Below are positions 13,975 to 43,577 of a stretch of 64,000 bases of DNA, one piece after another; position 1 is the stretch's first letter; the number at the start of each line of letters is the position of its first letter. The notes below the pieces were generated by a model that saw nothing but the letters and a program-made list of their open reading frames with translations, was not told the DNA's origin and searched no databases. Made by a program: the position numbers and the translations under genes. This stretch comes from an uncultured bacterium. Its GTDB lineage: Bacteria; AUK180. The stretch covers positions 75,413-139,412 of the forward strand of contig CALMGJ010000010.1 of the NCBI GenBank assembly GCA_937863565.1, written 5' to 3'.

Positions 13975-14621
13975 GTTTTCTAAAAAAGGGAAGATACATT
14001 GCCGTGGAGGGTGTGATAGGTGTGGGTAAGACCACGCTTACGAAGTTGATCGCGGAAAGGTACAATGGCAAGTTCTTCCTTGAAGTTGTAGAGGAGAACC
14101 CCTTTCTGGAACCGTTCTATGCTGATAAAGAGAAATACGCATTCCAGGCCCAGATCTTCTTCCTGCTTTCGAGGTTCAAACAGCAGCAGGAGCTCATGCA
14201 GATGGACCTGTTCTCTAATTTCATTGTTTCGGATTATTTCTTCGAGAAGGACAGGATATTCGCTTACCTGAACCTGAACGAGAAAGAGCTGGGTCTGTAT
14301 GAAACATTATGGAAAATGATGAGCAGGACAGTCTCGAAACCCGATCTCGTGATCTACCTCAGCGCGAATACCGATATCATCATGAGCAGGATCGAGAAAA
14401 GGGGGAGAAGTTTTGAGCACAATATGGACCGGCATTATATCGAGAACCTCAAACAGGCTTACGACTATTTCTTCTTTCACTACAATGATTCGAATTCGCT
14501 TACTATAAATACGGACAAGCTTGATTATGTCAATGATCCCGAACATCTTGAACTCATCCTCAAGCAGATCGAGGATTTTACTTCGGGGAAAAAATACATC
14601 GATCCCTTCAAGAAGATATGA
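13971..14621 (+). CDS. Deoxynucleoside kinase (dAK/dGK/dCK family)
   Basis: P-loop GVIGVGKTTL, ERY/DR motifs, 216 aa. Confidence 0.85.
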   Translation: MSFLKKGRYIAVEGVIGVGKTTLTKLIAERYNGKFFLEVVEENPFLEPFYADKEKYAFQAQIFFLLSRFKQQQELMQMDLFSNFIVSDYFFEKDRIFAYLNLNEKELGLYETLWKMMSRTVSKPDLVIYLSANTDIIMSRIEKRGRSFEHNMDRHYIENLKQAYDYFFFHYNDSNSLTINTDKLDYVNDPEHLELILKQIEDFTSGKKYIDPFKKI

Positions 14622-15340
14622 ACCCGGCCGTTAAACTCACCAATACTTGCAAGAAGTTCGGCACAAAAACAGCGCTTGACGGCATATCGTTCGAGATCCC
14701 CAAAGGAAAGATAACCGGATATCTTGGTCCGAACGGTGCAGGAAAAACGACTACGCTTAATATCATCTGCGGCGTCATAGCAATGGATTCCGGCTCCGTC
14801 AGCATTGCCGGAAGCGAGATCCCGGGAGACGGAAGTTATAAATCGAGGATCGGGTACGTTCCGGAGAACCAGATGATGTACCAGCAGCTCACCGTGAAGG
14901 AGCATCTTGTATTCGCAGGAAAACTGTACGGAATAGATCGCGGTGTGCTGAAGGAACGCATCGATCGGATGCTCGAGGATTTCGGGCTGCAAGATCAAAA
15001 GGATCATCCCATTCAGAAACTCTCCAAGGGAAATAAACAGAAAACCCTGATAGCCTGCGGACTCATTCACGAACCGGAAATACTCTTTCTTGACGAACCC
15101 CTCAACGGGCTCGATATTGAAAGTCAGTTCAAATTCAAGGAATTCCTCAAGGAGTATCTGCAGAAAGGGAATACGGTGCTCTACTCATCGCACATCATGG
15201 AGGTCATCGAAAGAATGACCGAAAGGATCATCATTATAAGCAAAGGCAGGATCAGATTTGACGGCATGATAAACGATCTTGTTGCCTCATACGGGGGCAT
15301 TTCCTTCGAAGAAGCTTTTATGAAGAAGATAAATGAGTAG
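14618..15340 (+). CDS. ABC transporter ATP-binding protein
   Basis: Walker A GPNGAGKTT, LSKGNKQK signature, Walker B ILFLDEP. Confidence 0.92.
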   Translation: MNPAVKLTNTCKKFGTKTALDGISFEIPKGKITGYLGPNGAGKTTTLNIICGVIAMDSGSVSIAGSEIPGDGSYKSRIGYVPENQMMYQQLTVKEHLVFAGKLYGIDRGVLKERIDRMLEDFGLQDQKDHPIQKLSKGNKQKTLIACGLIHEPEILFLDEPLNGLDIESQFKFKEFLKEYLQKGNTVLYSSHIMEVIERMTERIIIISKGRIRFDGMINDLVASYGGISFEEAFMKKINE

Positions 15341-16868
15341 AGGATTAAGGGATACTTTCCTTCTTCTTTCCGTTTTCCTGAAGATAGATGCGAGAAACCC
15401 GAAGCTCCTCGAAAGGAACGACGGGAAGCTTTTCGCGTCGAATTTCATATATGTCCTGTATGCATTGACCGGTTTTACCTTTACGGTCAGCATTCTGATC
15501 AGAGGCCTTGACCCTTTAAACTACGCCTTCAATCTTCTTACGCTTCTTTCCGCCAATGTTTTCATTGTAGTATTCCTGGAGATGAGAAGGATATTCATCA
15601 TGCCTGAAGACTCGTTCATTCTTTCGGTTATGCCCGTTTCCAAAGGCTCCATAGTCATGGCGAAGATCCTCAATATAGCGGTATTCTCTTTTTTTATCAT
15701 GATATCCCTCGGCGCCGCGCCCGTTCTTGCCGGAACGGTCGTTCCCCGTTTCTCGGGCATCTTGCCCGCATCGGCAATGGTGCTGGCTCTGCTTTTCAAC
15801 GCGCTCTCCGCGGCCTTCCTTGCGGCATTCCTTTTCGTCATCCTTATTTCGATCGGGGGAAAAGGAGGGTTCGAGAAGATCTCCGTTCATGCTTCCGTGG
15901 TCCTGCTTATCGCATTTTATACCTGTTTCATCCTGTTCACAAGGGAATCAGGCATAAAGGATATCAGAACGGTCCCGGTATTCAGCTGGTTGCCGGCATA
16001 TCATTTTGCAAGGCTTTACGATCTTTCGATCTCAGGCAATATTAAGGGATTCCTCTTGCTGGTCTTTCTTATCGTCCTTTTCTGTGCGGCCGGCGCCGCG
16101 GTCTTCTATACGATCCTTGCCGGAACCTATCACAGACATCTGCAGACTTCCGGGGAAATAGAGGCGATATACGATACAGGAGGATCCGTCTACCGTAAAA
16201 ACCCTTACGGCATACTACTCGGGGCATATTCAAAAAGGGATCATCAGCTGAAGCTCCGGAACTACTCCCTTATCGGGATCATGGCGGTTTTCTTCATTAT
16301 GCTCTTTTTGGTCCCCGAAGAAAAAGATGCTGCCCCGTCGCCTTTTCTGATAAGCGCGACCGCTTTTGCGTTCAATCTCTATTTCATGATCACCGTTCTC
16401 ATCACCAATCATCTCTATTCGAAGGACTATGAGGCCTCTTATATATTCAAGGTGACCCCTTATGATGATGAAGAAGGCCGGACGGATTTCCTGCGCTTTC
16501 TGGCGAAACATTACTTTCTTCCGGTCTTTGCCGTTCTTGCCGCGGCTCTTACGTACGCTCTGGGACCCGTGAACGCATTCAAGGCTTTTTCTGTATATTT
16601 CAATTTCACGGTCCTTTCCATCTGCATATTCTTTTATATCAACCGCTCATCTCCGTTATCCCTGAAAGAGGACAGTCGCTCGAACCAGATGAAATATCTT
16701 ATCATGTTCATACTTGCGGTCCCGCTTACAATTTTGAGTTCAGTCCTGTTCAACGCGGCAGCACACGGCTTGATTCTTCTTTTCAACGGGATCAATGCTA
16801 TAATATTCATTATCAATGCCGTTTTATTGATATTGCTGCTAAGAAAAAGGCAATGGAGGTTTCAGTGA
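15333..16868 (+). CDS. ABC transporter permease-like polytopic membrane protein (uncharacterised)
   Basis: 511 aa, about 10–12 hydrophobic helices, overlaps the ABC ATPase gene. Confidence 0.6.
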   Translation: MSRGLRDTFLLLSVFLKIDARNPKLLERNDGKLFASNFIYVLYALTGFTFTVSILIRGLDPLNYAFNLLTLLSANVFIVVFLEMRRIFIMPEDSFILSVMPVSKGSIVMAKILNIAVFSFFIMISLGAAPVLAGTVVPRFSGILPASAMVLALLFNALSAAFLAAFLFVILISIGGKGGFEKISVHASVVLLIAFYTCFILFTRESGIKDIRTVPVFSWLPAYHFARLYDLSISGNIKGFLLLVFLIVLFCAAGAAVFYTILAGTYHRHLQTSGEIEAIYDTGGSVYRKNPYGILLGAYSKRDHQLKLRNYSLIGIMAVFFIMLFLVPEEKDAAPSPFLISATAFAFNLYFMITVLITNHLYSKDYEASYIFKVTPYDDEEGRTDFLRFLAKHYFLPVFAVLAAALTYALGPVNAFKAFSVYFNFTVLSICIFFYINRSSPLSLKEDSRSNQMKYLIMFILAVPLTILSSVLFNAAAHGLILLFNGINAIIFIINAVLLILLLRKRQWRFQ

Positions 16869-28420: not shown

Positions 28421-30358
28421 TCATAGTTCCGGGAACATCCTGTAAAGGAACGTTGAGATCGCAGGCACATATGTGATGAGAAGCACTGATACAAGAAGGA
28501 TGATGAGAAAACTCACCACATATGAATATATCCGGTTAAGCGGTTTCTTGAACGTATATGAAGCAAGGAAAAGGTTCAAACCGACCGGAGGCGTAAGATA
28601 ACCGAGTTCGAGATTGCATAAAAAGATGATGCCCAGGTGAACGGGATCGATCCCGTAGCTCATACCTAAAGGTATGATGAGCGGCGCTACTACAACTATC
28701 GCGGAGAAAATATCCATAAGGCATCCCGTTATTAAAAGAGCGAAATTGAGAAGGAGAAGGAATACATATTTCGACTTTATCGTCGCGACGAGATTCGCTG
28801 CGAGCTTCTCCGGGATCTGCGCGTCGACGATATAGTATGAAAGGCCTTTGGCGATCCCGAGTATGATCAGGATGCCGCCCAGCATCACCAGGGATTTTTT
28901 CACGATCTCTTTCATATCTTTTAGTTTGAGGTCTTTATATACCAGGCACTCGATGATGATCGCGTAAAGAAGGGCGAGGGCGCCGGATTCCACAATCGTA
29001 GTGAGCCCGGCGAAAAAACTAACGATGACCACTACGGGGAGCAGAAGCTCCCAGAACGCACCTTTTACCGAATCGAAGAACTCCTTTGCCGGTATCTTCT
29101 CCTTGGATACGGGTATATTCTTAGAATTTGCAATACCGAGAATGATGATGCACAGCATCATGAGGAAACCGGGAACGATGCCGGCCACGAACATCTTCTT
29201 TATGCTGATCCTGGCCACGACGCCGTACATGATGATCGCGATGCTCGGAGGGAAAAGGAGCCCTATGCTGCCCGAGGCCGTAAGGATTCCGTACGAAAAT
29301 TTCTCGCTGTAACCCCTTTTTATGAGCATGAACGACAGCAGTCCGCCCAAGGCGAGTATTGTGACCCCCGAAGCGCCTGTAAAGGTCGTGAAGAAAGCGC
29401 ACATGATAACGCTCACGAGAATAAGCCCTCCCTTCACACGGCCCATGAGCAGATTGAAGAACCTGAGCAGGCGCTCTCCGGCCTTGCTCTCCGCAAGAAT
29501 GACGCCCGTTATCGTGAAAAGCGGGATGGCGGGTATCGAAGATCCCGTTATCATAACATAATTTTCATTGGCAAGCACGTCCAGAACTCCATGTGCGCGC
29601 GTGAAAAGAAAAAGGCTTATCCCTCCGAGGACCACGAAAATATAATTGCCCAGAAAGAGCGATGCGGCAAGAACGATGATGAAAATAAGGGCCAGCGGTC
29701 CTGAAGCAAAACCGAAAAGCCAGGACAATTTCGTTTTTATCGCATCAGCCGCAGGATAGATCTCGACGCCCGGAAGAAGGGCGCAGAGGGAGGAAACAAT
29801 GCTGTCGAAAGCGTAAAGAACCGCTATGAAGATAAGAAAAGGGATCAAGAATGCCGCCGTTTTCTTGAATTCCCTGAGTTCGCTCAGGAACATGAGAAAA
29901 AAACCGACAGGCATTATAAGGCCGATGAGTTTAAGAGGGATGACGCCTGCCTTGTCCGTTGCCGAAAAAGCATTAAGAACGAAGGATAAAGCCGCCGCCG
30001 TGAAGATAAAAAGGACTATTGTCTTTAGCGACCCGTCAAGGATCACGAAAAACTTCTTGAGCCGCTCGCTTTTGAAACTCTCCAGAATGGCCCCGAGGGA
30101 CAAATGCCTTTTTTCGAGATAAGCGGCTACCGCTCCGACAAAGGAAAGGATGAGTACGATATGCTGAACATATTCACTTGATCCCCGCACGCCCGTTACG
30201 AAGACTTTGCGTAAAAATATCTCGAGGATCGGAAGCAGGGCGAGAAAGAAAACGATAATGAATGCAAAATATTCCCAGATGAAAATCCCGCTCTTCTTCA
30301 GGAAAAGGACGATGGCGCTATTTTTTATTCCTGCTTTCATTGAGGTATTTATCCACAA
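28421..30358 (-). CDS. TRAP transporter fused permease (DctQ-DctM fusion)
   Basis: 645 aa; N-terminal 4-TM DctQ-like segment then about 12-TM DctM-like domain. Confidence 0.85.
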   Translation of the reverse strand: MWINTSMKAGIKNSAIVLFLKKSGIFIWEYFAFIIVFFLALLPILEIFLRKVFVTGVRGSSEYVQHIVLILSFVGAVAAYLEKRHLSLGAILESFKSERLKKFFVILDGSLKTIVLFIFTAAALSFVLNAFSATDKAGVIPLKLIGLIMPVGFFLMFLSELREFKKTAAFLIPFLIFIAVLYAFDSIVSSLCALLPGVEIYPAADAIKTKLSWLFGFASGPLALIFIIVLAASLFLGNYIFVVLGGISLFLFTRAHGVLDVLANENYVMITGSSIPAIPLFTITGVILAESKAGERLLRFFNLLMGRVKGGLILVSVIMCAFFTTFTGASGVTILALGGLLSFMLIKRGYSEKFSYGILTASGSIGLLFPPSIAIIMYGVVARISIKKMFVAGIVPGFLMMLCIIILGIANSKNIPVSKEKIPAKEFFDSVKGAFWELLLPVVVIVSFFAGLTTIVESGALALLYAIIIECLVYKDLKLKDMKEIVKKSLVMLGGILIILGIAKGLSYYIVDAQIPEKLAANLVATIKSKYVFLLLLNFALLITGCLMDIFSAIVVVAPLIIPLGMSYGIDPVHLGIIFLCNLELGYLTPPVGLNLFLASYTFKKPLNRIYSYVVSFLIILLVSVLLITYVPAISTFLYRMFPEL

Positions 30359-31319
30359 GATCGAGAGCTTCCTTTTCGAAATTTACGCCGACGAGCTTGG
30401 AAAAACCGATATTGACCTGCCGGTTCCAATCCGTAACGGCCGCAGGAGGGACTTCGTTGATCTTGAGCCCGTACTGAAGCATTGTCTTCACGGCCTCGTC
30501 ATCAGTTTTATATATCTCATCCTGCATCCTCTGCCCGATGGACGTTGCGGCCTCCATCATTTTATCTTTGTATTTCTGAGGGATCCTGTCCCACGCCCTT
30601 TTAGAGAAAATTACAGCCCCGATGAAGGGCGCCCATCTCATTGCGCACATATTGTTCGCCAGGCCGAACCACTGATATGAAGCGGCATTGAGGGGAGAAG
30701 TGGCCAGCGCTTCCGTCATTCCGCTTTGGAGCGATGTCATGATCTCTGTGGACGGCAGGGGAATCGGATTGAAACCCTGCTCCTTCCATGATTGAAGTTC
30801 ATTGGCATCACCCTCCCATACCCAAAGTTTCAGTTTTTTAAGATCGTCGGGATAGACAACAGGTTTTTTACTGAAGAAATGGACCCATCCGATATGCGTC
30901 CAGACAATGATCTTGAAACCTTCTTTTTCGAATTTTTTCTCGAAGTATTCCTTCATTTTCCCAAGTACATGGAAAAGTTCTTCATTGGTCTCGATCTTCC
31001 GGGGCATTTGAATCGCCATGATTTCTTTAACGATCCTGCTCAAGCCCACGCCGGTAAGGCCGGCCGCGTCGAGCTGGCCCACGCGCAGCTTCCGTATCAT
31101 ATCTATCTCGTCCCCGACAGTTCCTCCGGAATAGATCTTCATATTGAAATTCCCTTCCGTTATCTTCAGCCATTCCTCGGAGATCTCCCTGAGATGTTTG
31201 TCCCATGGCGATCCGGCAGGGGAGAGACTGCCGAGCTTCAGGACGGTCTCGGACGATGCTGTCATCAGAAAAGCTATGAAAACGGTAAGTACAAGACATT
31301 TTCTCATATCACACCTCAA
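30318..31319 (-). CDS. TRAP transporter substrate-binding protein (DctP family)
   Basis: Signal peptide, LKLGSLSPAGSPWDKHL N-terminal motif typical of DctP family SBPs; 333 aa. Confidence 0.85.
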   Translation of the reverse strand: MRCDMRKCLVLTVFIAFLMTASSETVLKLGSLSPAGSPWDKHLREISEEWLKITEGNFNMKIYSGGTVGDEIDMIRKLRVGQLDAAGLTGVGLSRIVKEIMAIQMPRKIETNEELFHVLGKMKEYFEKKFEKEGFKIIVWTHIGWVHFFSKKPVVYPDDLKKLKLWVWEGDANELQSWKEQGFNPIPLPSTEIMTSLQSGMTEALATSPLNAASYQWFGLANNMCAMRWAPFIGAVIFSKRAWDRIPQKYKDKMMEAATSIGQRMQDEIYKTDDEAVKTMLQYGLKINEVPPAAVTDWNRQVNIGFSKLVGVNFEKEALDLVDKYLNESRNKK

Positions 31320-32230
31320 TCTATAAGGAAATAGTCGTCCATATGCGCAAGAAAATATGCGGCCCTTCTTTTGGCCAGAATGTTCTCAAGCCTTTCGGGA
31401 GAAGGCATTTCCGTATCTATGGCAAGCGTTCTACCAAGAAGGTCCCTGAATTCGGCCGCGTTCTGTTCGTTCACCGAAACGCTCAAAGCAAGGGCAAGAT
31501 AGATCGAACCCTTTTTCCCGCGGGAGAGTTCCACGGCCCTTTTAAAATGCTCTCTTGCCTTTTCGGGGCTGCCTCCCATGGCCGGAGGTATGCTGCCATA
31601 ATAAGTTACAAAGAACTCATGAATGCCGCCGTTATTGAAAGTCTCGTCCAATTCCAAGCACCGCTTCAGGATCTGAACGGCATAACCGGATGAAATGGAG
31701 AGTTCCATGTCGAATTTATCGCAATTGAAAGCCCCCATCCACGAGAGCGCCAGCCAGTAAAGTTTTTCAATATCCTTAACACCGAAAGCAGAAAGTGTAG
31801 AGCCGGGGTTATCCTTCAAACTGTCCAAAAAATTCTTATTTTTTAACGGAATCGACCTTAAAAGATAATCCTTCGCCCTCAGATAGAGCTTTTTTGCTCT
31901 ATTTACCGCAGTTTCCTTCTCCTGGAATCTCATACCCTCAGCCAATTCTGAAGGCGTGTAAACAAATGCGAACGAATACATGGCATACGCTTTTCCGGCC
32001 GCCAGCAGGAGATCCTGATCATCAGGCAATTCCGCTATCAACGCATCATAGGTCTTGAGGAAAACGGGCAAACTTTCACCTACAAGTTCGAGATCGTTCT
32101 CAGCGGCAAAAAGGTCGCCGGAACTTCCGGACAGTGCCTTTGAGACGTTCTTTAAAGCGAATTTCTTGACCGAACAGGATGAAAGGGCTAAAAAGGTTAT
32201 TGCTATAAGAATAATTGACCGTGTTCTCAT
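31316..32230 (-). CDS. TRAP-associated TPR lipoprotein (TatT family)
   Basis: Lipoprotein signal MRTRSIILIAITFLALSSC, TPR-like helical repeats, directly upstream of and co-oriented with DctP/DctQM. Preferred start is 32230 with AAAGAGGT RBS (ORF tracker 32371). Confidence 0.7.
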   Translation of the reverse strand: MRTRSIILIAITFLALSSCSVKKFALKNVSKALSGSSGDLFAAENDLELVGESLPVFLKTYDALIAELPDDQDLLLAAGKAYAMYSFAFVYTPSELAEGMRFQEKETAVNRAKKLYLRAKDYLLRSIPLKNKNFLDSLKDNPGSTLSAFGVKDIEKLYWLALSWMGAFNCDKFDMELSISSGYAVQILKRCLELDETFNNGGIHEFFVTYYGSIPPAMGGSPEKAREHFKRAVELSRGKKGSIYLALALSVSVNEQNAAEFRDLLGRTLAIDTEMPSPERLENILAKRRAAYFLAHMDDYFLID

Positions 32231-32547
32231 GAGTACCTCTTTACAATTATTATACCATAAAAACGAAAAATTCCGCATTATTTTATTGCGATTGCTCGAT
32301 AAAGCGCCCTTGCCGTAACAGAGAAGCGTTTTATGTCCATATGCGGATCTCGTATCTTTTTCATCTGTCAATTCCTCCTATCCTAAACTATCCATTGATC
32401 TGTGTGCATTTTTTTTACTCGTTAATCCTTCAATTGCGTAATAAAAAAGATATTTTTATTATTCATTCTTCGTATTTCAATGTTCATTTTATTTTGTTGT
32501 AACCTTTGCCGTCCAGAGTCGTTATATTAGTAAAGCGGAGGTTGAAT

Positions 32548-33712: not shown

Positions 33713-33741
33713 TTGAAAAAAACATGATTATTTGCTATAAA
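33713..33741 (+). promoter_or_regulatory. Sigma70-like promoter (TTGAAA-17-TATAAA); the -10 overlaps the first ATG of the downstream ORF
   Basis: TTGAAA at 33713–33718, 17-nt spacer, TATAAA at 33736–33741. Confidence 0.45.
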
Positions 33742-34106
33742 TGCTTATGGTATACGAAAATTCCGATCTTAACAGAAATATCGAAGAACTTAATAAAAAA
33801 GTAGAGAAGATAGAGAAGTACTTGTGTAAACTGGCGGAGTTCCTCGAGAAACTCGATGCCGAAAAGATCGGCAAGAATGTCAAGTATAACCTGGCCATGT
33901 ACGAGTCCAAGATCAAGGATGAGGACAAAGCGGATAAGATCATTAAGACCTTCCTGCAGGGACGCTTCCAGACCTGCGAGATATGCGGAAGGTTCAAGTT
34001 CATAGAAAATCTGACAGACAATCACGCTATTTGCGAAAAGTGCCTTCAGAAATACATCGCCCACGGCACTACGATCGAACAGGCAAAAGCACTCGAAAAA
34101 AAATAA
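33741..34106 (+). CDS. Small coiled-coil protein with C-terminal CxxC…CxxC zinc-ribbon
   Basis: 121 aa; CEICGRF…x14…CEKC. The true start is probably ATG 33747 (possibly leaderless). Overlapping minus-strand ORFs are judged spurious. Confidence 0.5.
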   Translation: MLMVYENSDLNRNIEELNKKVEKIEKYLCKLAEFLEKLDAEKIGKNVKYNLAMYESKIKDEDKADKIIKTFLQGRFQTCEICGRFKFIENLTDNHAICEKCLQKYIAHGTTIEQAKALEKK

Positions 34107-34127
34107 CGGTTCTTTTTAGGAGGATTT

Positions 34128-35351
34128 ATGATCGACCTTTTGAAGAATTATTCCATTAATGCCAGAAGAATGAAAAAGTCCGCCATCAGGGAACTTCTGA
34201 AACTCACCAATCGTCCGGAGATAATCTCCTTTGCCGGCGGACTTCCTGCCCCTGAAGCCTTTCCTATAGATGAAATGATAGATCTTGTGGAGGGCGTATT
34301 AAAGAACTACGGCAAGAAAGCGCTTCAATATGGTCCCACTGAGGGCTATCCGAAGTTCGTCGAACAGCTCATCAAATGGGAGAAGGAACAGAACGGCATC
34401 GATATAAAACCGGAGAATCTCTTGATCACCACCGCCTCTCAGCAGGCTCTCGATCTCGTGGCGAAGATACTCATAGACCCGTCCGATCCCGTTATCGTAG
34501 AACGGCCTACGTACCTTGGCGGGCTTCAGGCATTTAATCAATACGGCGCTAAGTTCATCGGCGTACCCATGGACGATAATGAAACGGGCATCAATATGGG
34601 AAAACTCGAACAGACGCTTCAAAAGCTCAAAACGGACGATGAACATTATAAATTCGTGTACATCGTTCCCGATTTCCAGAACCCCACGGGTATAACGATA
34701 CCTCAGGAAAAGAGAAAAAGACTGATCGAGCTGTCCGAAGAATTCCAATTTCTTCTCATCGAGGATTCACCCTACAGGGAACTGCGATTCGAAGGCAAAG
34801 AACCTGAAATGATGTACAAGATGGACAATACGGGAAATGTGATCACGCTCCATACGCTGAGCAAGACCTTCGCTCCCGGTTTGAGGCTCGGTTGGATAGT
34901 AGCCCATGAAGATATCATAGATAAACTCAATACCGCAAAGCAGGCCACGGACCTGTGCACGCCTTCTTTCACGCAGGCGATAGCGGCGGAATTCATGGCA
35001 AGGGGACTTCTTTTGGAGAACATTAAAAAAGTAAAGGATCTTTATAAGAAGAAAAAAGACATCATGCTCGACTCGTTCAAAAAATACCTTCCGGAAAGGA
35101 AGGATATCACCTGGACAAGGCCTGAAGGCGGACTGTTCCTCTGGCTTACATTGCCCGGATATATGAACACATCCACTCTCTTCGAACAAGCCCTTGAAGA
35201 AAAAGTGGCCTATATCGTCGGAGAGGCCTTCGATTGTTACGGGGTGATGAAAAACGCCATGAGAATGAACTTCTCGTATCCTTCCGAAGAGGAGATAGTC
35301 GAGGGTGTGAAAAGGCTTGCTAATCTGATCAAGAAAAATATTAAAGACTGA
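34128..35351 (+). CDS. PLP-dependent aminotransferase (class I/II, ARO8/LysN-like)
   Basis: KSAIRELL…FAGGLP N-terminus, SKTFAPGLRLGW Lys-PLP motif; 407 aa. Confidence 0.85.
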   Translation: MIDLLKNYSINARRMKKSAIRELLKLTNRPEIISFAGGLPAPEAFPIDEMIDLVEGVLKNYGKKALQYGPTEGYPKFVEQLIKWEKEQNGIDIKPENLLITTASQQALDLVAKILIDPSDPVIVERPTYLGGLQAFNQYGAKFIGVPMDDNETGINMGKLEQTLQKLKTDDEHYKFVYIVPDFQNPTGITIPQEKRKRLIELSEEFQFLLIEDSPYRELRFEGKEPEMMYKMDNTGNVITLHTLSKTFAPGLRLGWIVAHEDIIDKLNTAKQATDLCTPSFTQAIAAEFMARGLLLENIKKVKDLYKKKKDIMLDSFKKYLPERKDITWTRPEGGLFLWLTLPGYMNTSTLFEQALEEKVAYIVGEAFDCYGVMKNAMRMNFSYPSEEEIVEGVKRLANLIKKNIKD

Positions 35352-35366
35352 GAAAAGGTACTGTTC

Positions 35367-36815
35367 ATGAAAGAATTCGGCTTATACGCGCTCGATATCC
35401 TGTCGTCTAAAAAAGTCACGTACGGCGATATTAGGATCATAAGCACGAAAGACCAGAACATCGTCATACGCAACGGCCAGGCGGAGTTCAACTCAAAAAG
35501 AAGTTCGCTCGGGTTCGGTATCCGCGTTTTCTACGACGGAGCCTGGGGGTTTGCGGCGAGTTACGATCTTTCGAAAAAGTCAATCGGCAGGATCGCTGAA
35601 AAAGCGATCGGGATAGCAAAGGAATCGTCCAGATATAAAAAAAGCAAAGTAGTGCTATCGCCCTACGATGCATGCGATACGGCCGATTTCGTTTCACCCT
35701 ATAAACTCAATCCTTTCGATATTTCCGAGGAGGAAAAGCTTGCGCTTCTCATCGGGGCATCCCTTTCCATGAAGACGGACCCTAAGATCCTTTACGGCAT
35801 ATCGAATGCCAGCTTCAGGGAAGAGGATAAGCTTTTCATGTCCACCCATGGTCAGGAAATACGGCAAAGATTCGTTCAGACGGGTGCGGGGATCACGGCG
35901 ATCGCTTTCCATGAAGGCGAGGTCGCCAAAAGATCCTATCCCGCCTCCTTCGGGGGGGATTTCCGCAATGCCGGTTGGGAATTCGTGAAAGAACTGGATC
36001 TTCAGGGCAAAGGGCCGGTTATTGCGGGAGAAGCCGTGGAACTGCTCACTGCTCCCGGGGTGCCCCATACAAACACCACGCTTGTTCTCGAAGGTTCGCA
36101 GCTGGCGCTTCAGATACACGAATCCTGCGGGCATCCCACTGAGCTCGACAGGGTGCTGGGTTTCGAGCGGACGCTGGCAGGCACGAGTTTTTTGACATTG
36201 GATAAACTCTACGATCTCAAATACGGTTCGGACATCGTAAATATCACTTCAGATGCTACGAATACGGCCGCTCTGGGGGGATTCGCCTATGATGACGAAG
36301 GCATTCCCGCTCAGTGCTCCTTCCTTGTCAAGGACGGGCTCTTCGTGGGATATCAGACCTCGAGGGAAACTGCTCCGGTGATCGGCCAATGCTCAAACGG
36401 TTGCATGCGTGCCGACGGATACCACAATATCCCTCTGATCAGGATGACGAGCATAAACCTGCTTCCGGGAGAACATTCATTCGAAAGCATCATCTCGGAA
36501 GTGGAGGACGGTTTCTATTTCGCATTGAACAAATCCTGGAGCATAGACGATAAACGCCTGAACTTCCAATTCGGCTGCGAGATAGCCTGGGAGATCAAAA
36601 AAGGCAAACTCGGGAAGATATTTAAGAATCCCTCTTATACGGGGATAACGCCAGAATTCTGGGGTTCCTGCGATGCGATCGGCTCGGCGGAACACTACCG
36701 GATCTGGGGAATACCCAACTGCGGCAAGGGAGAACCGTCGCAAACGGCGCGTGTTTCCCACGGCGCATCCTTCGCACGCTTCCGCAATGTAGAGGTAGGA
36801 GTTTCCCAATGGTGA
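35367..36815 (+). CDS. tldD: TldD-family metallopeptidase (pair 1)
   Basis: HExxxH motif QIHESCGHPTELDRVLG; Gly-rich C-terminal GxC…GKGEP motif; 482 aa. Confidence 0.88.
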   Translation: MKEFGLYALDILSSKKVTYGDIRIISTKDQNIVIRNGQAEFNSKRSSLGFGIRVFYDGAWGFAASYDLSKKSIGRIAEKAIGIAKESSRYKKSKVVLSPYDACDTADFVSPYKLNPFDISEEEKLALLIGASLSMKTDPKILYGISNASFREEDKLFMSTHGQEIRQRFVQTGAGITAIAFHEGEVAKRSYPASFGGDFRNAGWEFVKELDLQGKGPVIAGEAVELLTAPGVPHTNTTLVLEGSQLALQIHESCGHPTELDRVLGFERTLAGTSFLTLDKLYDLKYGSDIVNITSDATNTAALGGFAYDDEGIPAQCSFLVKDGLFVGYQTSRETAPVIGQCSNGCMRADGYHNIPLIRMTSINLLPGEHSFESIISEVEDGFYFALNKSWSIDDKRLNFQFGCEIAWEIKKGKLGKIFKNPSYTGITPEFWGSCDAIGSAEHYRIWGIPNCGKGEPSQTARVSHGASFARFRNVEVGVSQW

Positions 36816-38122
36816 AAGAAAGACTTAACGGGATAGCAAGAGAGATCCTGTCCGCTTCCGATGCGGATTTTACGAGAGTTTCCATCTCGCTATCCGAAAC
36901 GGATCTTACAAGATTCGCCAATTCCGAGATACATCAGAACGTTTCCCAAGAGAATATCGGCATAGGGATAGAACTGGCCTACGGCTCGAAGCACGGCTTC
37001 ACTACCCTGGACTATCCCGATCCCGAACTTATAAAAAGCGAAATCAAGGCGCTGAAAGCGCTTGTGATCGCGGGGAAGGACGATCCGGAATTCTGCGCTG
37101 CGAGAGGGGAGAATCACGAATACTCGGAGAAGTATGACGAAGAAACAGCCTCTCTCGGTCCGAAAAGCATGGCGGATATTGCAGGCGGCATCATCGCAAG
37201 GACGAACAAGGCGGGCCAGGAATCATTCGGTTCATTAAGCTTACGGAGGGAACACGAACTTCTCGCTAATTCCTTCGGCTCGAAAGCGTTCTCCGAAGCG
37301 ACGGTAGTGGAGCTCGTTACGATCCCCGTGAAGAACGAACGGACTACTTATAATGAATTCTTCTCCCACAGGATATCCGATTATTCTGAGGAGGCTCTTC
37401 TTGCCGCACCGCTTTCGCGGATGGACCTTTATAAAAATTTCAGCGATCTCAAAAGAGGGAAATATACCGTCCTTCTCGAAGAGATCGCAGTATCGGATAT
37501 CATACGCTTTTTTAACTATATGGTATCCTCCGGCCGCATGCTTCATGAGAAACAGAGCGCGTTCTACGGCAATATGGGCAAGGAGATCACCGGAAAAAAT
37601 CTCACTCTTCACGATGATCATACGGACCCTCGGACCGTGGGAAAACCTTATGATTCCGAACTCAATACAAAAGAGAGGATCGTGCTCATCGAGAACGGCG
37701 TGGCCAAAAACGTTGCGTTGAACGAAAAATATTCCAAGCTTCTCGGGATGAAGAACAACGGGCATTCTGTCATGGGAGGCCAGAACACGATGTGCGGCAA
37801 TCTCCGTCTGGAAACGGGCGATGCGCCAAAGGACGAGATAATATCCGGCATTGAGAACGGGCTTCTGATAACGAGATTCCATTATACCAATGTGCTGGAT
37901 ATGAGAAAAACCATATTTACCGGAATGACAAGGGACGGCATGTATATTATTAAAGACGGAAAGCTCACGGGAACGGGCAATAATCTCAGGTTCACGATCA
38001 ATATACTGGATGCGTTCAAGAACATCAAGGCCCTTGGAAAAGAACTTGTCTGCATCGGCGGCGTTTCCGTTCCCTGCCTTAAAATAGAGGATTTCAATTT
38101 CACTGGGGAGACGAGATTTTGA
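36809..38122 (+). CDS. TldE/PmbA-family protein (pair 1)
   Basis: PmbA/TldE architecture without HExxxH; overlaps tldD by 7 nt. Confidence 0.82.
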   Translation: MVKERLNGIAREILSASDADFTRVSISLSETDLTRFANSEIHQNVSQENIGIGIELAYGSKHGFTTLDYPDPELIKSEIKALKALVIAGKDDPEFCAARGENHEYSEKYDEETASLGPKSMADIAGGIIARTNKAGQESFGSLSLRREHELLANSFGSKAFSEATVVELVTIPVKNERTTYNEFFSHRISDYSEEALLAAPLSRMDLYKNFSDLKRGKYTVLLEEIAVSDIIRFFNYMVSSGRMLHEKQSAFYGNMGKEITGKNLTLHDDHTDPRTVGKPYDSELNTKERIVLIENGVAKNVALNEKYSKLLGMKNNGHSVMGGQNTMCGNLRLETGDAPKDEIISGIENGLLITRFHYTNVLDMRKTIFTGMTRDGMYIIKDGKLTGTGNNLRFTINILDAFKNIKALGKELVCIGGVSVPCLKIEDFNFTGETRF

Positions 38123-39012
38123 GCGAGTTCATAAGGTCCCTATTCGGCGATTCGCTTTCCGAAGCCGTAAAAAGCCCGGTCTTTATAAAGATCATCCAGA
38201 GTTTTTTCATCATGCTCGTCTTCGGCGGCGTTTCCTTCATGTTCACATCGCTGATCGGGAAGGGAGTGAAGAACAGCCAAGCGCGCTACAGGGCCGTGAA
38301 ATATGTCAATGTATTCTTCTCCGTCCTCATCATTGTCTGTATCTTTCTTATTTGGATATCCATGCTCCGCTCCGTGGCCATAGTCCTCTCCGTGATATCC
38401 GTAGGGCTTGCCCTTGCGCTTCAATCGGTCATCCTTTCCTATGCCGGATGGCTTTATATAATAACTCGGAAATCCGTGAAAGTCGGTGACCGCATCGAGA
38501 TAAACGGCCTCATCGGGGATGTGATCGACATCGATCCCTACAGCATCACGCTTCTTGAAATAGGTAACTGGGTGAAAGGAGAGATGTCCACGGGCCGGAT
38601 CGTGAAACTGCCCAACAGCGCCGTGTTCCAGCATCACCTGTACAATTACACGCATGGCTGGGATTTCATCTGGGACGAGATATCGGTAACAATAACTTTC
38701 GAAAGCGATTTTAAAAAAGCCGAGGCGATATTCCTCGATATCATAAAGGATTATGCCGCGAAATATCAGGAAGAGATAAAAAAGACCATAGATGAACTCG
38801 GGAAAAAATACCTTATCTATTTTAAATTCTATACCCCGAAGACCTTTGTTTCAATAGAATCCTCGGGCATTCAGGTAACCCTGCGCTACCTGGTCAACGC
38901 GCGTGAAAAACGCATGAAGAGGGACGAGATATCGCGTGAATTCCTTCTTCGGATTGGTCCGGAGCCGGATGTGAATCTGGCATATGAAACGCGCAGGATC
39001 GTCAAGGATTGA
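38119..39012 (+). CDS. Small-conductance mechanosensitive channel (MscS family)
   Basis: 3 TM helices followed by beta-domain VKVGDRIEINGLIGDVIDIDPYSITL; ATGA-type overlap. Confidence 0.85.
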   Translation: MSEFIRSLFGDSLSEAVKSPVFIKIIQSFFIMLVFGGVSFMFTSLIGKGVKNSQARYRAVKYVNVFFSVLIIVCIFLIWISMLRSVAIVLSVISVGLALALQSVILSYAGWLYIITRKSVKVGDRIEINGLIGDVIDIDPYSITLLEIGNWVKGEMSTGRIVKLPNSAVFQHHLYNYTHGWDFIWDEISVTITFESDFKKAEAIFLDIIKDYAAKYQEEIKKTIDELGKKYLIYFKFYTPKTFVSIESSGIQVTLRYLVNAREKRMKRDEISREFLLRIGPEPDVNLAYETRRIVKD

Positions 39013-40235
39013 ACCGGATCCGGCAGTATTTCGCGAATTTCATTTTTGAAACGAAAAAGAAGACCGCACTGTACAGGCTTCTCATGCTGCACTCCTTTTT
39101 CGAAGGTCTCACTCAGGGTATATTCCTTCTGCAGGAAACGATAGCGAAGAAATCGCTTTCCGCAACGGATTTTCATGTGACCGTTCTTACGATACTGATA
39201 CATATCGGTCTCGTTTTCTCCATCTTTTTCGGCGTCTATTTCAGGGGAAGGAAGAAAGCCCCGGGCTATGTTGTGGGCCTGCTGGCCGGCAGGCTTATTT
39301 TTCTGTTCTCATTCCTGATAGGGAATATCTATATTTTCATCGGGTTTGTATTCCTCTATTATTTCTCAACATCGGTCATTTCTCCCGGCATAAACAGCGT
39401 ATTCAAGAACGAGTTCAAGATCACGAACCGGGGGAAGCTGTTCTCGATGCTGCGCGCCGCAATGTCGCTCTCCGCCATGCTCTCTTCTTATATTGCGGGT
39501 AAATATCTGGACCTCACGCAGAATTACAGGATCGTGCTGATCGCGGCCGGCATTTTCGGAGTATTGTCCTTTTTGATGCTCATTGCAGTCGACAATACGG
39601 CCGATTATTCCAAGATGCGAGCAGCCGGACCGGCAAAACCGATGCCACTGGACAGGGATTTCCTTCGGTTCGAGGCCTGCTTCATGACATACGGGTTCGC
39701 ATTCATGATAATGCTCCCGGCCGCGCCGATCTACCTTATAGATAAAATGGGTTTCAGTTTCACACAGATGGGATTCGTAAAAGGGGCAATGGCTCAGATA
39801 TTCTTCATCATGTTCATCCCGTTCGCCGGCGCCGTTTTCGACAGGATGTCGCCGTGGAAGGTCTTCCGCAACAGCCAGATCCTTCTTTCCCTTTTTCCTC
39901 TCGGATTTCTCCTCGCCGATACTTTTTTCCCGCATAGAACAGTCATTTATGCCGCATTCCTTTTCTACGGAATGGGGATCTCGTCAATGACCGTGTTGTG
40001 GACACTTGCTTCCATCTATTTCGCAAAAGGCGAGGATTCGAGCTATTATCAGTCCGTACATGTGGCTTTTACGGGCGTGAGAGGCCTGCTTGCTCCCGCT
40101 TTGAGCTATTTTCTGTTCAGGACCTTCTCGTTCAGAGTGTGCTTTATAATGGCCGCCGTGCTTTTCCTTGCCGCATTCGCGATGGCACAATACCGCATTC
40201 TTGCAGGAAAAAGAACTTTTATCGCTTCTCAATAG
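39009..40235 (+). CDS. MFS transporter
   Basis: 408 aa, about 12 TM helices, typical MFS loop motifs. Confidence 0.75.
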   Translation: MNRIRQYFANFIFETKKKTALYRLLMLHSFFEGLTQGIFLLQETIAKKSLSATDFHVTVLTILIHIGLVFSIFFGVYFRGRKKAPGYVVGLLAGRLIFLFSFLIGNIYIFIGFVFLYYFSTSVISPGINSVFKNEFKITNRGKLFSMLRAAMSLSAMLSSYIAGKYLDLTQNYRIVLIAAGIFGVLSFLMLIAVDNTADYSKMRAAGPAKPMPLDRDFLRFEACFMTYGFAFMIMLPAAPIYLIDKMGFSFTQMGFVKGAMAQIFFIMFIPFAGAVFDRMSPWKVFRNSQILLSLFPLGFLLADTFFPHRTVIYAAFLFYGMGISSMTVLWTLASIYFAKGEDSSYYQSVHVAFTGVRGLLAPALSYFLFRTFSFRVCFIMAAVLFLAAFAMAQYRILAGKRTFIASQ

Positions 40236-40236
40236 G

Positions 40237-40264
40237 TTGAAAATCTTTGAATTTCTGATATACT
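40237..40264 (+). promoter_or_regulatory. Internal sigma70-like promoter upstream of ferritin-like gene
   Basis: TTGAAA-16-TATACT, then CAGGAGGT RBS and ATG 40287. Confidence 0.45.
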
Positions 40265-40286
40265 AAATGTAAACAGGAGGTAGAAT

Positions 40287-40787
40287 ATGGGTACCAAAGG
40301 CAAAGCTATCGTAGGGATCAGGATCAATGATCTTATCAAACTTCTGAACAGCGCACTGGCGGACGAGTGGCAGGCGTACTACCAGTACTGGATCGGAGCG
40401 AAGGTCATTAAAGGGCCTATGAAAGAAGCTGCTATCGCGGAACTTCTCCAGCATGCGGCGGATGAGCTCAGGCATGCCGAAATGGTCAGCGGCCGCATTA
40501 TCCAGCTGGGCGGCACTCCGGTGCTCACGCCCGTAGAATGGGCAAAAGTGTCAAATTGCGGTTATGATGCTCCGAAGGATCCGTTCATTAAAAAAGTGCT
40601 CCAGCAGAACATCAAAGGCGAGCAGTGCGCGATAGAGGTCTACAATCAGATAGTGAAGCTCACAAAGGATAAAGATCTTGTCACCTTTAATATGGCGGTG
40701 CAGATCATGACGGACGAAGTCGAGCACGAAGAGGACCTCCAGGCGCTTCTCGAAGATTTCGAAACGATGAAAAGGTCGTTCAAGTGA
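40287..40787 (+). CDS. Ferritin-like (four-helix-bundle, bacterioferritin/Dps-like) protein
   Basis: 166 aa; paired E…ExxH diiron-type ligands (EWQAYYQY…ELRHAE; EVEHEED). Confidence 0.7.
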   Translation: MGTKGKAIVGIRINDLIKLLNSALADEWQAYYQYWIGAKVIKGPMKEAAIAELLQHAADELRHAEMVSGRIIQLGGTPVLTPVEWAKVSNCGYDAPKDPFIKKVLQQNIKGEQCAIEVYNQIVKLTKDKDLVTFNMAVQIMTDEVEHEEDLQALLEDFETMKRSFK

Positions 40788-40799
40788 AAGGGAGATGAC

Positions 40800-42128
40800 A
40801 TGAACAAAGCATTTCTTGAGGGTCTTCAGAGCCTGACGAAAAAGTACGGAGAGAAACTTAACTTTTCGTACTCCGAATGGGAGACGGATTTCCTGAGGTT
40901 TTACAGGAGCAAGACGAATTACAATATCAGCAACCGTATAAATACTCTCGGCTGTACAGTCCACAGAGGAAAGCGTGCGATGAGCTTCTCTATCGACGAG
41001 CCCGATATTGCCGGGGTAGAAAAGAAATTGCAGGCCGTCCTTGCGGTTATAGACGGTATCCCTGAAGATCCCGACTTCGTAGACATCGAGAACGACACAA
41101 GGGCCGCTCTGGCCGCAGAAACGGTGAATAATATCACTGCGGTGGGTCTTGAAAAAAAGATCGGTCTACTCAATGAAATAAAAAGGGACGCCGCGACAAA
41201 AGGCTTCAGGATCTTCGGGACTTTCATTACGAATTATGTCGAACATGCTGTAATAAATTCCAGCGGGGTTTTCAAGACCTCGGTCACTTCTCCATTCTTG
41301 TTGGATGTCAAGGCGGTCAAGGACGACAATGACGTCACAGTGATCGAGAACACGGGGGGCAGCGATTACGGCGCTTTCTCTGAAAAGGATTTCCGCGCCT
41401 CTCTTTCTGCGAAGATGGATAATGCCGGAAAAGAGCTGATCGATATGGAGCCGGGAAGATACGAGGTAGTGCTCTCTCCTTCAGCCACGGCCGAGTTCAT
41501 GGGCTATCTTCTGGCTCTTGCGAACGGCGGAACGCTGGACAGCAATAATTCGTTCTTCGAAGGAAAAGTTGGGCAGAAATTATTCCCGGAAACGCTCACG
41601 GTCACCGATGACCCCTTAAATCCGAGGCTTGTGAGGACGCCATATAACGACGAGGGAAGACTTCTCGGGAAACTTCCCGTAATAGAAAGAGGAGTGTTCA
41701 GGAATTTCTTCATCGATAATTATTACGGCAACAAACTGAAAATGGATAAAAACGGCAATTCGGGCTCGAACATCGTCATTGGAAAGGGGAAGATACCTCT
41801 TTCCGATATGATCAAGGGGATCAAGAAGGGTCTTTTTATCTCTAACCTGCATTACATGAACTTCATAAATCCCAAAGAGACCTCGGTGACCGGTCTTACA
41901 AGGGACGGCACTTTTTTGATCGAGAACGGGGAGATCAAAAACGTTGTGAACAATCTCCGTTTCACGGTGAAGATAGAGGAAGTATTCCGCAATGCCGTTG
42001 AATTCGAGGATAGGGAACATGTGCTTGCGCGCTCGGGCAATTACGGTGAATTCGGGATCAATACGGCTCTTGCCCCGCATATCAAGGTGAAGGATTTCAA
42101 TATCACCTCGTCGACAAAGACGGTATAG
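40800..42128 (+). CDS. TldE/PmbA-family protein (pair 2)
   Basis: PmbA/TldE-like, no HExxxH; C-terminal GxxxG…beta region similar to pair 1 TldE. Confidence 0.82.
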   Translation: MNKAFLEGLQSLTKKYGEKLNFSYSEWETDFLRFYRSKTNYNISNRINTLGCTVHRGKRAMSFSIDEPDIAGVEKKLQAVLAVIDGIPEDPDFVDIENDTRAALAAETVNNITAVGLEKKIGLLNEIKRDAATKGFRIFGTFITNYVEHAVINSSGVFKTSVTSPFLLDVKAVKDDNDVTVIENTGGSDYGAFSEKDFRASLSAKMDNAGKELIDMEPGRYEVVLSPSATAEFMGYLLALANGGTLDSNNSFFEGKVGQKLFPETLTVTDDPLNPRLVRTPYNDEGRLLGKLPVIERGVFRNFFIDNYYGNKLKMDKNGNSGSNIVIGKGKIPLSDMIKGIKKGLFISNLHYMNFINPKETSVTGLTRDGTFLIENGEIKNVVNNLRFTVKIEEVFRNAVEFEDREHVLARSGNYGEFGINTALAPHIKVKDFNITSSTKTV

Positions 42129-42137
42129 GAGACTCTG

Positions 42138-43577
42138 ATGAAGAACACGGCTTTAAAGATATTGAACAAGATAGAAAGGTCGGGGATCACGTATGCGGAC
42201 GTAAGACTTACGTCCACCGATAATGAAGGGTTCCATTTTGAAAGAGGCGCTCTCAAAGGCATGGGCGGCCAGAAGGACTCGGTAAGAGTGGGCATACGGG
42301 TGCTGGCTGAAGGGACCTGGGGTTTTGCCGCCGGTTCTGATATTTCGGATAACGCTGTCGATGCGATGATCAAAAAGGCAACGGACAATGCGAAAAAGGG
42401 AAGCAGGTTTCAGGCTGAAAGAGATGAATTCAAGCCGATCAAGGGGATTGAAAAAGAGTACCGGTTCAAACCCGAGATCGATCCGTTCACGATGCCTCTT
42501 GAAGAAAAACTTGCCTACTTGGAAAAGCTCGCGAAGATGATCGCGGGTGACCCCAATATTCCGTTCTCCATTGTGGATCTTATGTGCTACAGGCAGCATA
42601 AAGTGTTCGTCAATACCGAAGGCATGATCGCGGATACTGTCGTTTACGACATCAAACCTTCCATGATGGTGATCGCCGTCGGCCCGGGCGGAGTGATGTC
42701 CAGAACATTCCCCGGACATATGGAAGCGAGAAGAGGGGGCTTCGAAGTGCTGAAACAATACGACTTCGAGGGAAATGCCGAAAGGATAATGAAAGAAGCG
42801 GCGGAACTTCTGACGGCAAAAGGAGTTGAGGATGACGAAGGCGATATTATAATCGGCGCCGGCCATCTCGCTCTCCAGCTTCACGAATCCGTGGGGCATG
42901 CAACTGAAGCGGACAGAATATTCGGCATGGAGATATCTTACGCGGGCAAGACTTTTGTTAAGCCCTCCATGATAGGCAATTTCAAATACGGTTCGGATAT
43001 ACTCACGATATACACGGATGCCAGTGACGAGCGGGGCATCGGATTCCATCCTGTCGACGACGAAGGCGTGCCGGCAAAGAGAGTGGATATCATTAAAAAC
43101 GGAGTCCTGAAAGACCTGCAGACATCACGGCAGATCGCGGATAAACTCGGGCTGGAGCCCTCGTCCAATATGAAGGCCTCGTTCGCCTCGGATTTCCCGC
43201 TGGTCCGCATGACCAATCTCTGCATTGAACCCGTAAAGGGAAGCCTCAAAGAGATGATCGCCGGAACAGAGAACGGATATCTTGTTGATTTCACGAAGAC
43301 CTGGTCGATTGACGACAACAGGAATAATTTCCAGTTCACGACCGAAATAGGCTGGAAGATCAAAAACGGGAAGATCGAGAGGGTCGTGAGGGAACCCACT
43401 TATTTCGGCATAACCAAGGAATTCTGGAATTCCTGCGATGCGATATGCGGACCCGAGGAATGGAACTATTACGGAACTTTCTTCTGCGGCAAAGGCGAAC
43501 CGGGTCAGGCGATGCACCTGTCGCACGGCGTGGCGCCTGCACGTTTCAGGAAAGTGAAGCTTCTTAAAAGCTATTAA
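42138..43577 (+). CDS. tldD: TldD-family metallopeptidase (pair 2)
   Basis: HExxxH motif QLHESVGHATEADRIFG; C-terminal CGKGEPGQ; 479 aa. Confidence 0.88.
   Translation: MKNTALKILNKIERSGITYADVRLTSTDNEGFHFERGALKGMGGQKDSVRVGIRVLAEGTWGFAAGSDISDNAVDAMIKKATDNAKKGSRFQAERDEFKPIKGIEKEYRFKPEIDPFTMPLEEKLAYLEKLAKMIAGDPNIPFSIVDLMCYRQHKVFVNTEGMIADTVVYDIKPSMMVIAVGPGGVMSRTFPGHMEARRGGFEVLKQYDFEGNAERIMKEAAELLTAKGVEDDEGDIIIGAGHLALQLHESVGHATEADRIFGMEISYAGKTFVKPSMIGNFKYGSDILTIYTDASDERGIGFHPVDDEGVPAKRVDIIKNGVLKDLQTSRQIADKLGLEPSSNMKASFASDFPLVRMTNLCIEPVKGSLKEMIAGTENGYLVDFTKTWSIDDNRNNFQFTTEIGWKIKNGKIERVVREPTYFGITKEFWNSCDAICGPEEWNYYGTFFCGKGEPGQAMHLSHGVAPARFRKVKLLKSY

Follow-up and report, generated by a model that had tools for sequence, protein, structure and literature searches.

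Within a 64,000-nucleotide stretch of an uncultured bacterium (assembly GCA_937863565.1, contig CALMGJ010000010.1, positions 75,413 to 139,412; hereafter the window), two TldD/TldE peptidase pairs stand in mirror-image order around genes for an MscS-like channel, a major facilitator superfamily (MFS) transporter and a ferritin-like protein, and the question arises whether these genes work together as one system or represent neighbours that came to lie side by side. The physiological role of TldD/E beyond toxin and microcin processing in E. coli is still unclear, and the original prediction, made from this DNA, had seen in the seven genes a single, so far undescribed unit for peptide processing, export or detoxification. 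From our point of view, the region probably consists of three units that have come to adjoin each other in this lineage and are inherited separately in other genomes. It would hence be an ordinary gene neighbourhood rather than a new system for peptide processing, because only sub-blocks of it recur and the full order occurs in no compared genome. The first unit would be a six-gene block of a small clade (33741-40235, hereafter module A), the second a gene for a DPS-like (DPSL) mini-ferritin with its own promoter-like site (40237-40787), and the third TldE2-TldD2 (40800-43577), which would represent the standard coupled pair of the whole Cloacimonadota lineage. The genes and the promoter-like site are:

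33741-34106, + strand: 121-aa protein with a coiled coil and a four-cysteine zinc ribbon, first gene of module A; likely true start at ATG 33747
34128-35351, + strand: class I/II pyridoxal phosphate-dependent aminotransferase (Pfam Aminotran_1_2, 1e-42), module A
35367-36815, + strand: TldD1, catalytic subunit of pair 1 (M103 metallopeptidase), 482 aa, three PmbA_TldD domains
36809-38122, + strand: TldE1, non-catalytic partner in pair 1, 437 aa (PmbA_TldD_3rd, 3e-40)
38119-39012, + strand: MscS-family small mechanosensitive channel homolog, 297 aa (MS_channel_2nd, 5e-10), module A
39009-40235, + strand: divergent MFS transporter, 408 aa (MFS_1, 1e-27), last gene of module A
40237-40264, + strand: sigma-70-like promoter match, TTGAAA-16-TATACT with an upstream TG; consensus match only (10/12)
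40287-40787, + strand: DPSL mini-ferritin, 166 aa (Pfam Ferritin, 1e-29)
40800-42128, + strand: TldE2, non-catalytic partner in pair 2, 442 aa (PmbA_TldD_3rd, 2e-45)
42138-43577, + strand: TldD2, catalytic subunit of pair 2, 479 aa, three PmbA_TldD domains

Open reading frame (ORF) calls and Pfam agree with the predicted order TldD1–TldE1–MscS-like–MFS–Dps-like ferritin–TldE2–TldD2 on one strand at 35367-43577, with PmbA_TldD domains in four of the ORFs (Pfam E 1e-28 to 1e-45) and junctions that measure, from TldD1 to TldD2, -7, -4, -4, +51, +12 and +9 nt. The seven predicted genes thus stand; the left edge, however, had been placed two genes short, since the aminotransferase, whose stop lies 15 nt upstream of TldD1, and the zinc-ribbon gene belong to the same co-directional conserved block.

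The evidence that carries the three-unit reading comes from related genomes. A one-genome-per-species scan with the TldD2 alignment yielded 80 loci, including flanks of up to 10 kb, which were searched by tblastn with all window proteins. The seven-gene order was present in 0/80 of these TldD2-anchored loci and in 0/3 of the relatives that carry module A, and with this absence the proposal of one undescribed unit loses its footing. What does recur is the second pair as such: TldE2 is followed directly by TldD2 in essentially every locus in which the upstream DNA is present, at a median gap of 10 nt (71 loci), and the TldE2 orthologs immediately upstream of TldD2 are 41-52% identical to that of the window. 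Neither a DPSL nor an MscS gene lies within 10 kb of TldD2 in any of the 80 loci, and an MFS gene (L053; 28% identical, 6 kb upstream) and an aminotransferase gene (L022; 2 kb downstream) appear there once each. TldD2 homologs at 56-64% identity number in the thousands, and the named ones belong to Cloacimonetes, Cloacimonadota or Syntrophosphaera; the nearest species-level genomes are unclassified or Cloacimonadota metagenome-assembled genomes (MAGs), the names of which suggest vent, seep and brine sediments. Nearby double Tld pairs are not unique to the window, since a complete Cloacimonadales chromosome (L019, OY762463.1) encodes, besides the standard pair, a further TldD-TldE pair that belongs to a third lineage (13702-16445, - strand); the two pairs converge, the additional one being 2.3 kb downstream, with a nitroreductase gene in between. 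A literature search on TldD in Cloacimonadota returned nothing relevant.

Module A comprises six genes and is common to a handful of closely related MAGs. Homologs of TldD1 reach 65-66% identity in five clusters, the only five above 60%, and are 52-57% identical in other phyla; contigs from three of these five clusters (L083/L084, L085 and L086) were compared. As far as each contig reaches, the genes for the 121-aa protein, the aminotransferase, TldD1, TldE1, MscS and MFS follow each other in the order and spacing of the window, with L085 stopping inside TldE1 and L086 after MscS. Downstream of the MFS gene, L083/L084 continue with DUF4140/DUF4139, M23 peptidase and bactofilin genes, with no DPSL and no second Tld pair. 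The genomes concerned (CAYVPX and JAGGYO) carry TldE2-TldD2 on other contigs (L017 and L011), on which the 7-8 kb upstream of the pair shows no similarity to the window. The first pair can also be followed beyond this small clade, as D1-type TldD genes are succeeded by a TldE gene in genomes of Dictyoglomaceae, Actinobacteria and Zixibacteria and in most of at least 80 metagenome loci that were found with the TldD1 alignment, the listed matches of which are 46-52% identical, stem from soil-type samples and include none of the window's clade. Across these three genome groups and the metagenome matches listed, the pair is never followed by an MscS or MFS gene, and an aminotransferase gene occurs near it once among the matches listed, at a distance of 5 kb and on the other strand.

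As judged from their sequences, the two pairs are ancient paralogs and not recent duplicates, because TldD1 and TldD2 share 36% and TldE1 and TldE2 27% identity and because they fall into separate clades when 40 D and E sequences are placed in a neighbour-joining tree, a simple distance tree that is adequate for this coarse question only. TldD2 is found in a clade that consists of Cloacimonadota only, and TldD1 lies within a clade that spans many phyla and includes sequences of Firmicutes, Dictyoglomus, Actinobacteria, Chloroflexi, Zixibacteria, Verrucomicrobia and Terriglobales (52-57% identity). The E subunits mirror the D tree, with TldE1 clustering with the TldE genes downstream of D1-type TldDs in other phyla and TldE2 with the partners of D2-type genes. 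The tree hence speaks against simple recent duplication. The original prediction had named such a duplication, together with a gene order that does not recur elsewhere, as what would undo it; of these two, only the second is borne out. Since D and E subunits co-cluster as old paralogs, and the full catalytic set is present in D only, two separate heterodimers are the natural reading, as had been proposed, and the pattern supports two distinct, co-evolved complexes in which each TldD would pair with its neighbouring TldE; the adjacency and translational coupling of the genes within each pair are indirect evidence for such pairing.

The catalytic equipment of the four proteins agrees with this picture. 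A motif search of all four, in line with what had been predicted, located HExxxH in both TldDs (HESCGH at residue 251 of TldD1, HESVGH at residue 249 of TldD2) and in neither TldE1 nor TldE2. In alignments of both TldDs to E. coli TldD (5nj5_A), which run over the full length, the motif is in register; the glutamate and aspartate that follow it are kept (HESCGHPTELD in TldD1 and HESVGHATEAD in TldD2, corresponding to E270/D272 in E. coli), and the cysteine of the C-terminal CGK motif is likewise in register (nCGKGE in TldD1 and fCGKGE in TldD2, compared with vCGKeG in E. coli). In the E. coli protein, this cysteine (C454) is the third metal ligand and E270/D272 are structural (PMC5810440). All four proteins show the PmbA_TldD architecture, with PF01523, PF19290 and PF19289 above their gathering scores, and stay far below the NCBIfam equivalogs for TldD (NF008006, NF040952) and PmbA (NF008268), with best scores of 87-148 bits against cutoffs of 438-635. 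By these scores, they belong to the family without being equivalogs of its E. coli or archaeal members.

The gene between the two modules, which had been labelled ferritin-like, indeed encodes a ferritin fold and can be described more exactly as a DPSL mini-ferritin. Its best solved relative is the DPSL protein of B. fragilis (2vzb, 2.7e-40, residues 12-165), followed in the PDB by DPSL entries of P. furiosus and S. solfataricus. The bacterioferritin-type di-iron ligands E27, E60xxH63, E112 and E144xxH147 are all present, and the two cysteines of 2vzb have their counterparts in C91 and C114; according to the structure paper on the S. solfataricus protein, such a pair near the di-iron site is reportedly a hallmark of DPSL proteins. 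The score against NCBIfam Arch_DPS (82 bits) lies under the 250-bit cutoff, which points to a bacterial DPSL branch. DPSL proteins are oxidative-stress proteins of anaerobes, and the one in the window would most likely oxidise and sequester iron with peroxide and thereby protect the cell from oxidative stress. The 51-nt gap before the gene holds the promoter-like site followed by AGGAGG, so that the predicted internal promoter is borne out as a match to the consensus only. As a separate observation, three of the at least 80 distant metagenome loci have a gene for a classical bacterioferritin some 2 kb downstream of their D1-type pair (L121 14906-15277, L162 4756-5169 and L165 13578-13991). We did not accept them as counterparts of the DPSL gene, as they are not DPSL and their sequences, nearly identical in type, probably represent one lineage.

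What, then, could the two peptidases do? Each pair would most likely assemble into its own TldD/TldE heterodimer, a hollow M103 metalloprotease into which unfolded peptides would thread through a narrow pore to be trimmed without sequence specificity, as has been shown for E. coli TldD/E. The likely role would be a general cytoplasmic peptide turnover that feeds amino-acid catabolism in an anaerobe fermenting peptides and amino acids. Such a role fits because module A contains an aminotransferase and because genes for an amidohydrolase and a glutamate dehydrogenase stand beside pair 2 in relatives. In 35 of the 80 loci, the amidohydrolase gene (426 aa, PF01979/PF07969) is the immediate upstream neighbour of TldE2-TldD2, co-directional with the pair and separated from it by about 50 nt (for example L020 353-1633, L021 7329-8606 and L032 7373-8638, each on the strand of the Tld pair); this recurrent three-gene string is absent from the window. 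Glutamate dehydrogenase directly follows TldD2 in two close relatives (L005 4735-6066 and L011 11602-12939), a beta-eliminating lyase gene is found upstream of pair 2 in L019, and several loci of relatives encode secreted C25, M28, M6 and S8 peptidases. An amino-acid-fermenting lifestyle is also that of the cultured-proxy Cloacimonadota. Three close relatives (L003, L004 and L006) have a Na+/H+ exchanger gene ahead of TldE2. PHP-domain genes upstream of Tld pairs in L011 and L087 were set aside as a chance occurrence, the two PHP proteins not being significantly similar.

Several points weigh against a mere juxtaposition. The nine co-directional genes with their tiny gaps, and with no convincing terminator-like hairpin in any intergenic gap of the cluster, may be co-transcribed and co-regulated and may share a local functional link. 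Module A is itself conserved in its small clade, and the comparison covers three or four related contigs, two of which end inside the block. The catabolic role, in turn, is deduced from neighbouring genes and from the lifestyle of the lineage. On the whole, gene content, catalytic residues, paralogy and the comparison of gene order are observed, and the pairing into heterodimers, the substrates, the physiological role and the transcript structure are inferred.

One could ask whether module A is a true functional operon of a small marine-sediment or seep clade, in which cytoplasmic peptide hydrolysis and transamination are coupled to solute flux across the membrane, for instance for the homeostasis of osmolytes derived from peptide amino acids or for the export of catabolic products. 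This partly overlaps with the three-unit reading and goes further in claiming a dedicated unit; we consider it unlikely. In its favour, three related MAGs have kept order, strand and overlaps although their proteins are only 38-72% identical, and vent, seep and brine sediments are suggested by the names of the MAGs. The 121-aa protein has orthologs directly upstream of the aminotransferase (L083 124-489, L085 4343-4705 and L086 2063-2428), and the motif GRFQTCxxCGxFKFIExLTxxHxxCxxC is invariant in 4/4 sequences. The protein has no Pfam match, and its AF2 single-sequence model is of too low confidence to be usable (pLDDT 58.6). A TTGAAA-17-TATAAA match ends at 33741 and homologs of the protein begin at ATG 33747, so that the mRNA may be leaderless from this ATG.

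The aminotransferase can be assigned from its matches to the broad-specificity PH0207 / MsAT / 2-aminoadipate (ARO8-like) type, with 1x0m/3aov (P. horikoshii PH0207) at 1e-113, 1wst at 1e-111 and LysN at 4e-88, and its orthologs directly upstream of TldD1 in the three related MAGs are 68-72% identical. The MscS-like protein has the pore-lining TM3 and beta domain by both Pfam and structure alignment, with residues ~61-230 aligning with MscS/YnaI structures and N-terminal hydrophobic segments at 17-83, and it scores far below the NCBIfam MscS equivalog cutoffs. Public annotations differ on its start (266 aa in NCBI/ENA, P0242, against 297 aa in Logan, P0241); since 98% of the long form is covered when it is aligned with its L086 ortholog, the sequence favours the TTG start at 38119, which overlaps the TldE1 stop. 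MscS orthologs (44-50%) follow TldE1 in L083 and L086, and an MFS ortholog (42% identical) follows MscS in L083/L084.

In favour of a functional link, one could also point to a similar string in another Cloacimonadota MAG, where genes of the order aminotransferase-MscS-TauE are separated by gaps of 3 nt and 7 nt (L091 6835-9731); we rejected it as a counterpart of module A, as its aminotransferase is 22% identical and not an ortholog. Against a dedicated operon stands that the clade is very small, counted at 6 clusters above 60% identity, that synteny among close relatives may simply reflect inheritance, and that outside of it D1-type pairs have no adjacent MscS, MFS or aminotransferase gene among the loci listed. 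Other homologs of the MscS-like protein (40-47% identical, mostly Omnitrophota) are found in unrelated neighbourhoods, and the MFS protein has no assignable subfamily, with no such match even at E<=1 and no PDB relative at E<0.01. The more specific idea, that module A could be a dedicated unit joining a TldD/E peptidase and transamination to membrane solute flux, as in the homeostasis of peptide-derived osmolytes, appears quite unlikely to us. If it were true, DPSL-TldE2-TldD2 would be co-transcribed in this genome by positional accident, and module A would offer a physiological role for a TldD/E pair outside of toxin or RiPP (a peptide made by the ribosome and modified after translation) processing.

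Another possibility is that DPSL, TldE2 and TldD2 form a local oxidative-stress transcription unit under the DPSL promoter, in which iron sequestration is combined with a protease that clears oxidatively damaged, unfolded polypeptides. Co-transcription of the three genes is possible: the promoter-like site and a strong ribosome-binding site precede DPSL, and the 12-nt gap to TldE2 contains no terminator. The substrates of TldD/E are unfolded peptides and its metal may be Fe or Zn (PMC5810440), and a PmbA/TldD protein of S. solfataricus was detected only after nickel (redox) stress (PMC1995220). However, the promoter is a consensus match only and DPSL adjoins TldE2-TldD2 in 0/80 related species loci, which means that any coupling, including co-transcription, would be unique to this genome; a stress unit of this kind seems improbable.

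Lastly, the original prediction had linked the region to RiPP maturation and export, with two specialised TldD/Es, the MFS protein as exporter and the MscS channel as release valve of a seven-gene RiPP-like processing, export or detoxification system. It is true that TldD/E matures microcin B17 and other RiPPs and that some pearlin and biphenomycin clusters contain TldD-type proteases (PMC10885120, PMC12707348), and the window does hold two catalytically intact pairs with an adjacent transporter. Yet a search of the junction gaps (9-51 nt) and of the 113-nt upstream gap found no fitting precursor ORF, in keeping with the prediction's own remark that no precursor-like small ORF is present. The 20 genes of the flanks (22.9-33.6 kb and 45.4-55.0 kb) fall, by Pfam, into housekeeping or transport families only, namely TRAP-T transporter, ornithine/aspartate carbamoyltransferase, HAD phosphatase, FHA, methyltransferase, glycosyltransferase, TPR, metallo-beta-lactamase fold, Sua5/RpiB, RibD, epimerase and SAM hydroxide adenosyltransferase, and within ±10 kb there is no precursor, no YcaO, radical SAM, MNIO, PEARL, lanthipeptide or ABC-peptidase gene and no dedicated exporter. 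TldD-encoding clusters such as those for pearlins and biphenomycins also hold precursors and modification enzymes (PMC10885120, PMC12707348), and TldD/E occurs in ~60% of bacterial genomes, usually outside biosynthetic clusters, where it is believed to have other cellular functions (PMC10885120, a 2023 review). With no space for a precursor, no peptide-modifying enzymes in the flanks, TldD/E mostly outside clusters, both pairs from lineages that occur as stand-alone housekeeping pairs and a seven-gene order that is absent from all related loci and thereby largely refutes it, the RiPP reading is unsupported and highly improbable.

As for the remaining surroundings, a Shine-Dalgarno-like GGAG/AGGAGG stands ahead of each of the nine genes (33.7-43.6 kb), and a GNAT acetyltransferase gene is convergent with the 3' end of TldD2. 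The junctions between the modules show neither ends of insertion sequences nor duplications in a search for repeats, which gave only short matches that stem from coding motifs of the paralogs. Scans of the window for Rfam families and tRNAs gave no hit. Exact-sequence look-ups of TldD1 and TldD2 gave no match either, and the window's proteins are singletons in clustering at 90% identity, from a single contig of 140,895 bp. Just upstream, on the - strand, lies a TRAP-T type transporter operon (28421-32371) with a TAtT T-component, a DctP-like binding protein and a fused DctQ-DctM.

Overall, the gene families of the region are all known, and the locus opens no new view on the role of TldD/E, because its symmetric arrangement is a lineage-specific coincidence of one genome; only the small-clade block Zn-ribbon–aminotransferase–TldD1–TldE1–MscS–MFS is mildly new. 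The analysis does show that a translationally coupled TldE-TldD pair is present throughout the phylum Cloacimonadota, often beside amino-acid-catabolic genes, and that a second, widely distributed D-E lineage shares a small conserved block with genes for an aminotransferase, an MscS homolog and an MFS transporter. The locus further calls for caution in deriving RiPP functions from TldD/E gene neighbourhoods.

Compared with known systems, the TldDs of the window share an intact metal site with the TldD-type proteases of the pearlin/ammosamide and biphenomycin (BipI) pathways. Pearlin and biphenomycin clusters, however, hold a precursor or scaffold peptide, PEARLs, MNIO and B12-rSAM (radical SAM) enzymes that the window lacks, and BipI acts without a TldE, whereas each TldD of the window lies beside one. 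The DPSL protein resembles B. fragilis 2vzb and the archaeal DPSL proteins (S. solfataricus 2clb, P. furiosus) in its E/ExxH/E/ExxH ligands and both cysteines; its gene differs in lying between two peptidase modules, an arrangement with no counterpart in related genomes. The aminotransferase matches PH0207 of Thermococcales and MsAT of T. profundus (3aov, 1wst) over its full length (E ~1e-113), which turn amino acids into 2-oxo acids in anaerobes that live by peptide fermentation; in contrast to theirs, its gene is translationally coupled to a TldD/E pair. E. coli TldD/E, finally, has been described as a sequence-independent "pencil sharpener" for unfolded peptides that binds Fe or Zn (PMC5810440). 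With TldD/TldE (PmbA; M103; 5nj5) of E. coli, the window proteins share the three-domain architecture, the presence of HExxxH and the CGK cysteine in D only and the expected mechanism, in which a hollow heterodimer would trim unfolded peptides irrespective of their sequence; identity to them is low, with 87-93 bits against NCBIfam equivalog cutoffs of 513-635. The genes tldD and pmbA of E. coli are unlinked, and the window region differs from this in holding two pairs, each adjacent and translationally coupled, with D before E in pair 1 and E before D in pair 2.

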